Part shown: piece after piece, positions 44,514 to 63,911 of the stretch
How the letters are laid out: each line of letters opens with the position of its first letter
Numbering within the stretch: position 1 is the first letter of the stretch
From: Lama glama
Taxonomy: Eukaryota
DNA length: 64,000 nucleotides
NCBI GenBank assembly: GCA_028534125.1
Contig: CM052816.1
Span: forward strand, 13,578,001 to 13,642,000
Reading direction: 5' to 3'
Made by a program: the position numbers and the translations under genes
The notes under the pieces: model-generated
What the model saw: only the letters and a program-made list of their open reading frames with translations
Told to the model about the DNA's origin: nothing
The model's database searches: none

Positions 44514-45013
44514 NNNNNNNNNNNNNNNNNNNNNNNNNNNNNNNNNNNNNNNNNNNNNNNNNNNNNNNNNNNNNNNNNNNNNNNNNNNNNNNNNNNNNNN
44601 NNNNNNNNNNNNNNNNNNNNNNNNNNNNNNNNNNNNNNNNNNNNNNNNNNNNNNNNNNNNNNNNNNNNNNNNNNNNNNNNNNNNNNNNNNNNNNNNNNNN
44701 NNNNNNNNNNNNNNNNNNNNNNNNNNNNNNNNNNNNNNNNNNNNNNNNNNNNNNNNNNNNNNNNNNNNNNNNNNNNNNNNNNNNNNNNNNNNNNNNNNNN
44801 NNNNNNNNNNNNNNNNNNNNNNNNNNNNNNNNNNNNNNNNNNNNNNNNNNNNNNNNNNNNNNNNNNNNNNNNNNNNNNNNNNNNNNNNNNNNNNNNNNNN
44901 NNNNNNNNNNNNNNNNNNNNNNNNNNNNNNNNNNNNNNNNNNNNNNNNNNNNNNNNNNNNNNNNNNNNNNNNNNNNNNNNNNNNNNNNNNNNNNNNNNNN
45001 NNNNNNNNNNNNN
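44514..45013. other. Assembly gap (500 N)
   Basis: Run of exactly 500 N, probably a fixed-size placeholder. Confidence 1.
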
Positions 45014-45368: not shown

Positions 45369-46546
45369 TTTTTTGGTAGCCATTGTATTTATTTTTTTAA
45401 TTTACATATATGTACTGTTCATTGTTTCTAAGAACAGCTTAGAGCTTTAGCTTTGTAAACTTGCATATATCTTGCTCTGTATTATTAACTGTTATGCAAA
45501 CACTAGTTATTTGTTTATGCTCAGTTGACAGTGTGCTGAGTTCCATGTCTGTATACAAAAGAGCTGAGTAGAAAAGGACATGAAATCAACAAAGATCAGC
45601 GAACCAGGGTACGCTGGGAAAGAGACACGTGAATGAACTGGAATCATCTAGACCGGATACCCTGTTTCATGCAGACAGTTCTACAAGTCAGCAGAGGCCG
45701 TGTCTCACGTCCCTTGCACACATTTCCCCCTTTTGACAGGGCCTCTGCAAGTGATCACTACTGACCCTCTGACGGCATGGATTCTTTTTATCATTTACTG
45801 GTGGGACATGGTTAGACTCTACTCTTAAGATTTCTGTAACCTTGAGATCTGCTGATCCACTGGAGTTGAGATCCCTGGCATCAAATTAAGATGATACTCT
45901 GCCTCCAGGGACTTTTCCCCAAGGCTCTTACGTGGGTTGTACATGTCACGAGATGCAGAACAACCACAAGATTACATCACCCAGGAAGAGACCAGCATCT
46001 CTGAAATGGGAGCAGGGATCACATTACTAAACATACGTCCTTTCATGGACCCTGACGACCCCCTTGCTTATAATGGGATGTGGGCGAATGACGGCAATGG
46101 GAGGCCGAACCAGAGGGCGACGAGAAAAGACACGGCACCATCTGCACACACTGTTACATTCACGTATCCCATTAAAATGGATGTGAGGTAGCGCTCTGCA
46201 CCCTGCTTCATGGAGGCACCAATATACATGCAGTGAGCCAGACTGGACTCTGCCTCCTCTTAAGACCGCCGGCCACTGCCATTGCCTTGGTGAAGGCGGG
46301 GCTCTGGCGTGGTATCACACTGAACCCACACCTCAGACTGAGAGGCCAAAGCCCAGGGACTCCCTCCACACAGAAGCAGTATTGATATCCACAAGCATCA
46401 GCCCAGGAATGAAAAAGACCCTTTGATACATTGGTCTCAAGAGCCCAAGGGTTTATTTAGAGCTACAGCAAAACTCACGGCACTAAGGAAACAACAGAAA
46501 ACAAGGGACCTTCACTCTTGCTCTGCTTCCCTGAACTGTTACTTAC

Positions 46547-46625
46547 GGGTTCCCTGCCATCCATGGCTTCCATCCAGAGCCTCCGGTCCTCTTCAGACAA
46601 CGCCTGCATGGTGATAACCCCTGGC
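46547..46625 (-). CDS. ARHGAP26: ARHGAP26 (GRAF1) coding exon, end of PH domain (probably the orthologue of human exon 11)
   Basis: ctcctttctctgcag|G CCA GGG GTT ATC ACC ATG CAG ... GGC AGG GAA CCC|gtaagt = (R)[26 protein letters not shown], 79 bp. The first base completes the split AG|G Arg codon of the upstream exon. It lies within ORF 46475..46747(-). Confidence 0.95.
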
Positions 46626-63816: not shown

Positions 63817-63911
63817 CTGTCTACTGCTTCCACATCAAAGCAAAACCTCTTCTCGATAGAGTCTGTTTTCCGCCGTGTGCAGGACTTGAGGGTGACTGAC
63901 TCATCTTCTCC
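63817..63911 (-). CDS. ARHGAP26: ARHGAP26 (GRAF1) coding exon, PH domain (probably the orthologue of human exon 10)
   Basis: Minus strand reads tccccacag|GGA GAA GAT GAG TCA GTC ACC CTC AAG TCC TGC ACA CGG CGG AAA ACA GAC TCT ATC GAG AAG AGG TTT TGC TTT GAT GTG GAA GCA GTA GAC AG|gtgagt = [31 protein letters not shown](R). It is 95 bp with canonical AG/GT and matches the recalled GRAF1 PH-domain sequence. Exon number is from memory. Confidence 0.95.

Follow-up and report, generated by a model that had tools for sequence, protein, structure and literature searches.

The secreted form of IGHM is the textbook composite terminal exon. According to PMC5928244, composite terminal exons are the commoner class of intronic polyadenylation sites (61.6% of 2675), it is chiefly skipped-terminal-exon sites and not composite ones that are associated with very long introns, and conservation around the cleavage site marks true sites. 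Human ARHGAP26 occurs once in the differential tables of that paper, which cover differentially used sites only. The site keeps 0.62904 of 2445 nt, or 1538 nt, of coding sequence, which is exactly the end of exon 17 (the end of exon 11 would be at 1107 nt, or 0.453), and its usage is 0.01 in naive B cells and 0.59 in plasma cells. Silencing of cryptic intronic signals by U1 (Kaida 2010, Berg 2012) is described in PMC5499120, which puts the median reach of U1 protection at ~1000 nt in human and mouse and describes selection against AATAAA close to donors.

The natural splice isoforms GRAF1a, b and c of the ARHGAP26 product differ just ahead of the SH3 domain (PMC4215711, PMC6912536), and the PH domain spans aa 265-369 according to PMC4215711. 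An engineered BAR-PH fragment causes more stalled tubules, and the proportion of tubule-positive T cells rises with it from 8.9% to 25.5% (PMC6912536), in agreement with the statement in a first-pass annotation of the present DNA that the BAR-PH unit alone tubulates membranes. The end of exon 11 also figures in other human RNAs. Circular circARHGAP26 (exons 2-11, 953 nt) takes the exon 11 donor for back-splicing (PMC12996625; coordinates tabulated in PMC6590048). The commonest CLDN18-ARHGAP26 fusion in gastric cancer joins exon 12 (24/26 cases; PMC6047683), and therefore the orthologous intron 11 parts BAR-PH from GAP-SH3 in tumors too.

The window, a llama stretch of 64,000 nt (G000:C1:13578001-13642000), carries ARHGAP26 on its minus strand, and a complete polyadenylation cassette lies at the start of intron 11. 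It resembles telescripted cryptic signals in that AATAAA stands close behind an authentic donor, within the protected range and in a long intron; it differs from them in having fuller accessory elements than most nearby intronic hexamers. With the composite class as described in PMC5928244, it has in common a read-through donor, a stop codon, a hexamer and the loss of C-terminal domains. The plasma-cell isoform of human ARHGAP26 in the tables of PMC5928244 is alike in gene, intronic 3' end and loss of the SH3 end, but it ends after exon 17, inside the GAP domain (1538 nt kept), whereas the window site lies after exon 11. The predicted 392-aa product is close to the engineered GRAF1 BAR-PH (aa 1-382) of PMC4215711 and PMC6912536, although that construct includes exon 12 and the predicted product does not. 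In two macaque models, XP_077793407.1 (X24) and XP_077793416.1 (X28), intron 11 is coding over its first 37 nt, and 10/12 residues are as in the camelid. In these computed models, for which no camelid equivalent was seen among 224 proteins, the 37-nt piece is joined to exon 13, and both GAP and SH3 are retained. A latent signal, a composite site and a donor at +37 are all known kinds of RNA processing. We consider it probable that the intron 11 signal is latent and silenced by U1, and that the intron is spliced normally.

Exon 11 and its donor

Ten consecutive ARHGAP26 exons were mapped from 16 neighboring stretches. One upstream exon is 100% identical to alpaca ARHGAP26 over 43 aa, so that both the gene and the camelid lineage are right. 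Two of the exons lie in the window, both on the minus strand: exon 10, an upstream PH exon (63817..63911, 95 nt), and exon 11, the last PH-domain exon (46547..46625, 79 nt), which ends in phase 0 at codon 369, the final PH-domain residue by the limits given in PMC4215711. Since the following exon of 37 nt (G000:C1:13569896-13569932) contains the exon-12 primer site published in PMC6047683, the window exon is exon 11 in human numbering. The first-pass assignment to ARHGAP26/GRAF1 and to its last PH exon is correct. Intron 11 measures 54,614 nt as assembled, an approximate length that includes a gap of 500 N; the gap lies at window 44514-45013.

The main 5' splice site, CCC|GTAAGT (46541..46549, minus strand), has 8/11 consensus matches and a U1 duplex of -7.3 kcal/mol, which makes it the seventh strongest of the ten mapped donors by duplex energy and joint third by consensus matches. 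Its intronic half is a perfect GTAAGT. The exonic AG is missing here, as it is in 7/10 mapped ARHGAP26 donors altogether, and the donors of two paralogous exons located in the genome (CCG|GTGAGA and GCT|GTAAGA) are likewise without it. Because both paralogous donors share the absence, the missing AG is inherited from the codon rather than tuned. By these measures, the exon 11 donor appears ordinary for ARHGAP26 and not unusually weak.

Two features had been proposed to predispose this intron to polyadenylation, and both bear on the view that the site is really used. The missing exonic AG is a weak argument, being common to 7/10 mapped donors and both paralogous ones. The great length of the intron is real (54,614 nt), yet as an argument for polyadenylation at this place it too is weak, since length fits mainly the skipped-terminal-exon class in PMC5928244. 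Use as a composite site would thus have to proceed from a donor that does not appear especially weak, with a long-intron argument that belongs to the other class of site.

The polyadenylation cassette and its chance expectation

When the main donor is passed over, the frame stays open on the minus strand for 23 codons and TGA (46475..46546, with the stop at 46477-46475). The predicted read-through product is 369 + 23 = 392 aa, BAR-PH with a 23-aa tail, in line with the BAR-PH-only product first proposed. Downstream on the same strand follow TGTA (46464..46467), which we take to be a CFIm-type upstream element, the hexamer AATAAA at +90 of the intron (46452..46457), a candidate cleavage CA at +114/115 (46432..46433), a second CA that fits equally well as cleavage site (46425-46424), and GTCTTTTT, a candidate U-rich downstream element (46412..46419). 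The hexamer therefore lies beyond the unused donor with an in-frame stop ahead of it, TGTA stands upstream, CA falls 10-30 nt past the hexamer and a U-rich element comes downstream. Donor, 23 open codons, TGA, TGTA, AATAAA, CA and T-run were each confirmed at the coordinates first assigned to them, in canonical order. The downstream element is modest: T makes up 40% of the 40 nt past the CA and 30% of the intron.

A motif scan found a donor-like hexamer, GTGAGT (GCC|GTGAGT, 46473..46478, minus strand), which contains the TGA stop, lies ~20 nt before AATAAA and, besides the main donor, is the only GT[AG]AGT within 1.5 kb of the start of intron 11. It is a possible extra U1 site. As a working donor at +68 it was rejected, since the resulting frames remain open for no more than 45 or 47 codons. 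Folding of the intron's initial 157 nt as RNA gives no structural argument (z = -1.52; 13/200 shuffles equally stable), and none of 12 listed tandem repeats lies at the locus.

How far does this arrangement exceed chance? AATAAA occurs 39 times in sense and 35 times on the opposite strand in the 46.5 kb of intron within the window, and 136 and 213 times, respectively, over 224 kb. A random sense position has AATAAA no more than 90 nt away with a probability of 0.052. Human ARHGAP26 has 22 introns; the corresponding probability for at least one intron is 0.41 for the ten mapped introns and 0.69 for 22. Behind the ten mapped donors, the first AATAAA lies at 2625, >3000, 366, 90, 1577, 540, 1551, 507, 2029 (past its intron) and 396 nt. 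When the initial 200 nt of the intron were shuffled by dinucleotides, AATAAA was present in 49/2000 shuffles. From 33% of random starts, the frame is open for at least 23 codons, and 102/136 sense hexamers have CA 10-32 nt past them. Over the 224 kb, a loose cassette test was passed by 13/136 sense and 19/213 antisense hexamers, and a strict one (TGTA within 20 nt, CA and five T), which was drawn up after this site was known, by 3/136 and 1/213, respectively. Single elements are thus not above chance, whereas their combination is in the upper tail. Because selection acts against AATAAA near donors (PMC5499120; 136 sense versus 213 antisense here), a hexamer at +90 should be rarer than the average rate suggests.

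The other two sense hexamers that pass the strict test are at window 45393 and 45126 (minus strand), +1154 and +1421 of intron 11. The stretch that holds them is AT-rich (GC 0.30) and may be antisense LINE-1, which it resembles.

The motifs, the exon map and the chance rates are established. For the latent signal that we favor, the mechanism would be telescripting: the +90 signal would be silenced by U1 snRNP bound to the exon 11 donor and possibly to GTGAGT as well, exon 12 would likely be joined in the usual way, and BAR-PH-only protein would not be expected in appreciable amounts. Cryptic intronic signals generally fire when U1 is limiting, and low-level firing may occur here where that is so. 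AATAAA at +90 falls well inside the ~1 kb protection range given in PMC5499120. The quality of the cassette, among the best 3/136, and the depletion of AATAAA near donors speak against this reading, as does the predominance of the composite class among intronic sites (PMC5928244).

The same quality argues for a real composite intronic site in some cell types, which would yield the 392-aa BAR-PH protein with its 23-aa tail; overall, we regard this as unlikely. The cassette is complete and well spaced, in the top 3/136 sense hexamers, its stop precedes the hexamer, and the protein would be cut exactly at the end of PH. Moreover, the gene has a regulated intronic site elsewhere, with a usage of 0.01 to 0.59 in the human B-lineage tables of PMC5928244, and BAR-PH alone lifts tubule-positive cells from 8.9% to 25.5% (PMC6912536). 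It is reasonable, by analogy with the engineered fragment, to foresee a membrane-shaping effect of the truncated protein if its RNA exists; such a protein would stabilize tubules and could oppose full-length GRAF1 via BAR dimerization. If a composite site is taken to be used in a few percent of introns, and a motif match to lift that share about fivefold, a rough weighing leads us to infer a 10-20% chance that the site is used. Should it be so, the +90 site would be a natural source of the fragment, BAR-PH, with which GRAF1 tubules are stalled in the laboratory, and a built-in tuning of clathrin-independent endocytosis. For the present it is a candidate by its sequence, like a great many other plausible signals in introns.

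The search for a shortened product

Of 272 database proteins examined, 224 carry the motif that ends exon 11; 205 of these continue into exon 12, 14 read on with VS, as the intron does, and 5 continue otherwise. The set is skewed to VS by one query, for which 120 of 503 matches were listed. The 23-aa tail occurs in 0/224 of the proteins with the motif, and the camelid-type tail in 0/28 short relatives (30-416 aa, of 118 candidates). The sole read-through model among the proteins examined is a vole prediction, and it stops after 12 codons. The BAR-PH-only protein that the first-pass annotation had proposed is accordingly absent from the short relatives and the exon-end-motif proteins examined, with a vole tail of 12 codons and not 23, and this counts against a composite site.

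RNA records over 45800-46546, on the intron side, numbered 0 from 4/24 listed runs, which is too thin for inference: three of the four consist of contigs that come from a related organism or from mixed samples, and one is a targeted single-cell library sampled at ~1%. Word shares of 0.30-0.42 from the run listing were set aside, as they were not borne out by read placement. The start of the intron has a single match in its own genome, itself, and so no retrocopy of a short message is present there. All 8/8 matches of a metagenome pattern scan for mammalian orthologues were unrelated.

No report of an intron 11 site or its peptide was found in the literature covered, mostly open-access papers, and this too stands against the composite reading. 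ARHGAP26 does not occur in the supplementary files of PMC7338057 (4 files) or PMC8559711 (3 files, file 1 excluded); among the matches listed from the supplement of PMC6465371, it occurs as expression rows only, and the portion of the PMC7954529 supplement covered has at least 4 ARHGAP26 site identifiers without coordinates.

Because no shortened product turned up, the +90 signal is likely a silenced chance signal. These negatives are soft: the reads are uninformative, short isoforms may go unseen where proteins are clustered at 90% identity and represented by a full-length member (such clusters do contain fragments), the human tables are differential only, and camelid annotation is thin.

Two observations concern other ends of the same gene. 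In camelid intron 17 (behind G000:C1:13527353) the first AATAAA is at +396, and the macaque model X29 reads through the exon 17 donor. Several UniProt models (pig, dingo, primates) end at ~340 aa with a related alternative tail inside the PH region; they are a candidate for a separate GAP-less isoform.

A second donor at +37 and the linker between BAR-PH and GAP

The first 37 nt of intron 11 (46510..46546, minus strand), the counterpart of the macaque exon-12 replacement, would encode 12 residues and one base. They equal exon 12 in length (37 nt) and phase (0 to 1), and a candidate second donor, AAG|GTCCCT (46504..46512, minus strand), closes them at +37. This frame-keeping second GT would be used when exon 12 is skipped. 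Only the normal join and the join of the 37-nt piece to exon 13 remain open through exon 17; with both pieces in, the frame stops after 49 codons, and with both out after 10. The two 37-nt pieces would therefore be mutually exclusive by frame.

An isoform of this kind is annotated in a relative, by computed models. At least nine macaque models (six rhesus RefSeq and three UniProt), among the matches listed, splice at +37 in place of exon 12. They read EP-VSN[SN]SGKYSKNE-A-AQLD, in which the stretch is VSN[SN]SGKYSKNEAAQLD. Between the members of the RefSeq pairs X23/X24 and X27/X28, differences are confined to 10 positions of the linker stretch, so that one rhesus annotation holds both forms. 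The intron-start residues of camelid and rhesus are identical at 10/12 positions without gaps, and a GT at +37 is thereby implied for both; rodents agree with the camelid at 6/12. Splice-site context or the +37 donor explains this conservation over the first 12 codons better than a terminal exon does.

A functional +37 donor in camelids would lengthen exon 11 by 37 nt and join it to exon 13 with exon 12 skipped, the linker VYNSNKDSQSEGT being replaced by 13 residues; it is compatible with a latent poly(A) signal. The match of length and phase, the one-piece joins as the only ones open through exon 17, the six RefSeq and three UniProt macaque models with both forms side by side among the matches listed, and the 10/12 residues common to camelid and macaque all point to such a donor. 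Nonetheless, we hold it to be doubtful. With 5/11 consensus matches and -4.1 kcal/mol, the site is weak in the camelid, and 793/3432 intronic GT sites pair with U1 equally well or better. Among the 224 proteins that carry the motif closing exon 11, there is no camelid, human or mouse model of this form. The VS models of rat and birds (canary, rockjumper) use other lengths, and the vole frame closes at codon 13. The rat and bird models were thus rejected as support, the rat also carrying other replaced exons, and further replaced exons in the rat and in two of the macaque UniProt models are a mark of alignment artefacts. As a lead, the +37 donor is more specific than the composite site. If real, it would be an overlooked GRAF1 linker isoform where BAR-PH meets GAP. 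A peptide of this isoform would be SEAAQLDSIGFSIIR; EPVSNSSGK would be common to the linker and truncated isoforms.

The artefact signs in several models also agree with a third alternative, in which nothing here is functional: the hexamer would stay idle even in the absence of U1, and the forms modeled in macaque would be artefacts in which look-alike intron sequence takes the place of a small, distant exon. The likeness of the intron start to exon 12 is enough to attract aligners (score 27, 7/2000), and four phase-1 GT sites lie within the first 60 nt of the intron. Against this, rhesus RefSeq carries both forms together, and a cassette of this quality would be expected to fire once U1 is removed. 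We judge this alternative distinctly unlikely.

The two sites might also act together, with the intron start as a three-way switch: the near donor would give ordinary GRAF1, the +37 donor a linker shared by primates and camelids, an exon 12 look-alike encoded by the intron and without Tyr371, and failure of both a BAR-PH-only protein via the +90 signal. This is highly improbable. If it were true, a lengthened exon and a remote 37-nt exon that exclude each other by frame alone would constitute an unreported GRAF1 isoform switch. A latent, U1-silenced signal behind a normally used donor remains the reading that we prefer.

The intron start resembles exon 12 at a 3-nt offset, with a local score of 27, which was reached by 7/2000 GT-starting 37-mers; the exon 12 stretch in that alignment is NSNKDSQSEG. 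The notion that the intron start is a duplicate of exon 12 was rejected, since the ungapped identity of 8/37 is background and the likeness was spotted post hoc.

The linker swap would remove Tyr371. The matching tyrosine of ARHGAP42 is, we assume, a Src site. One paralogous exon, which by its peptide we take to be ARHGAP42-like, occurs twice in the genome, in inverted orientation and 237 kb apart (G000:C1016798:975020-975106, minus strand, and 737996-738082, plus strand). The compared flanks are identical, and the doubling is probably an assembly duplication.
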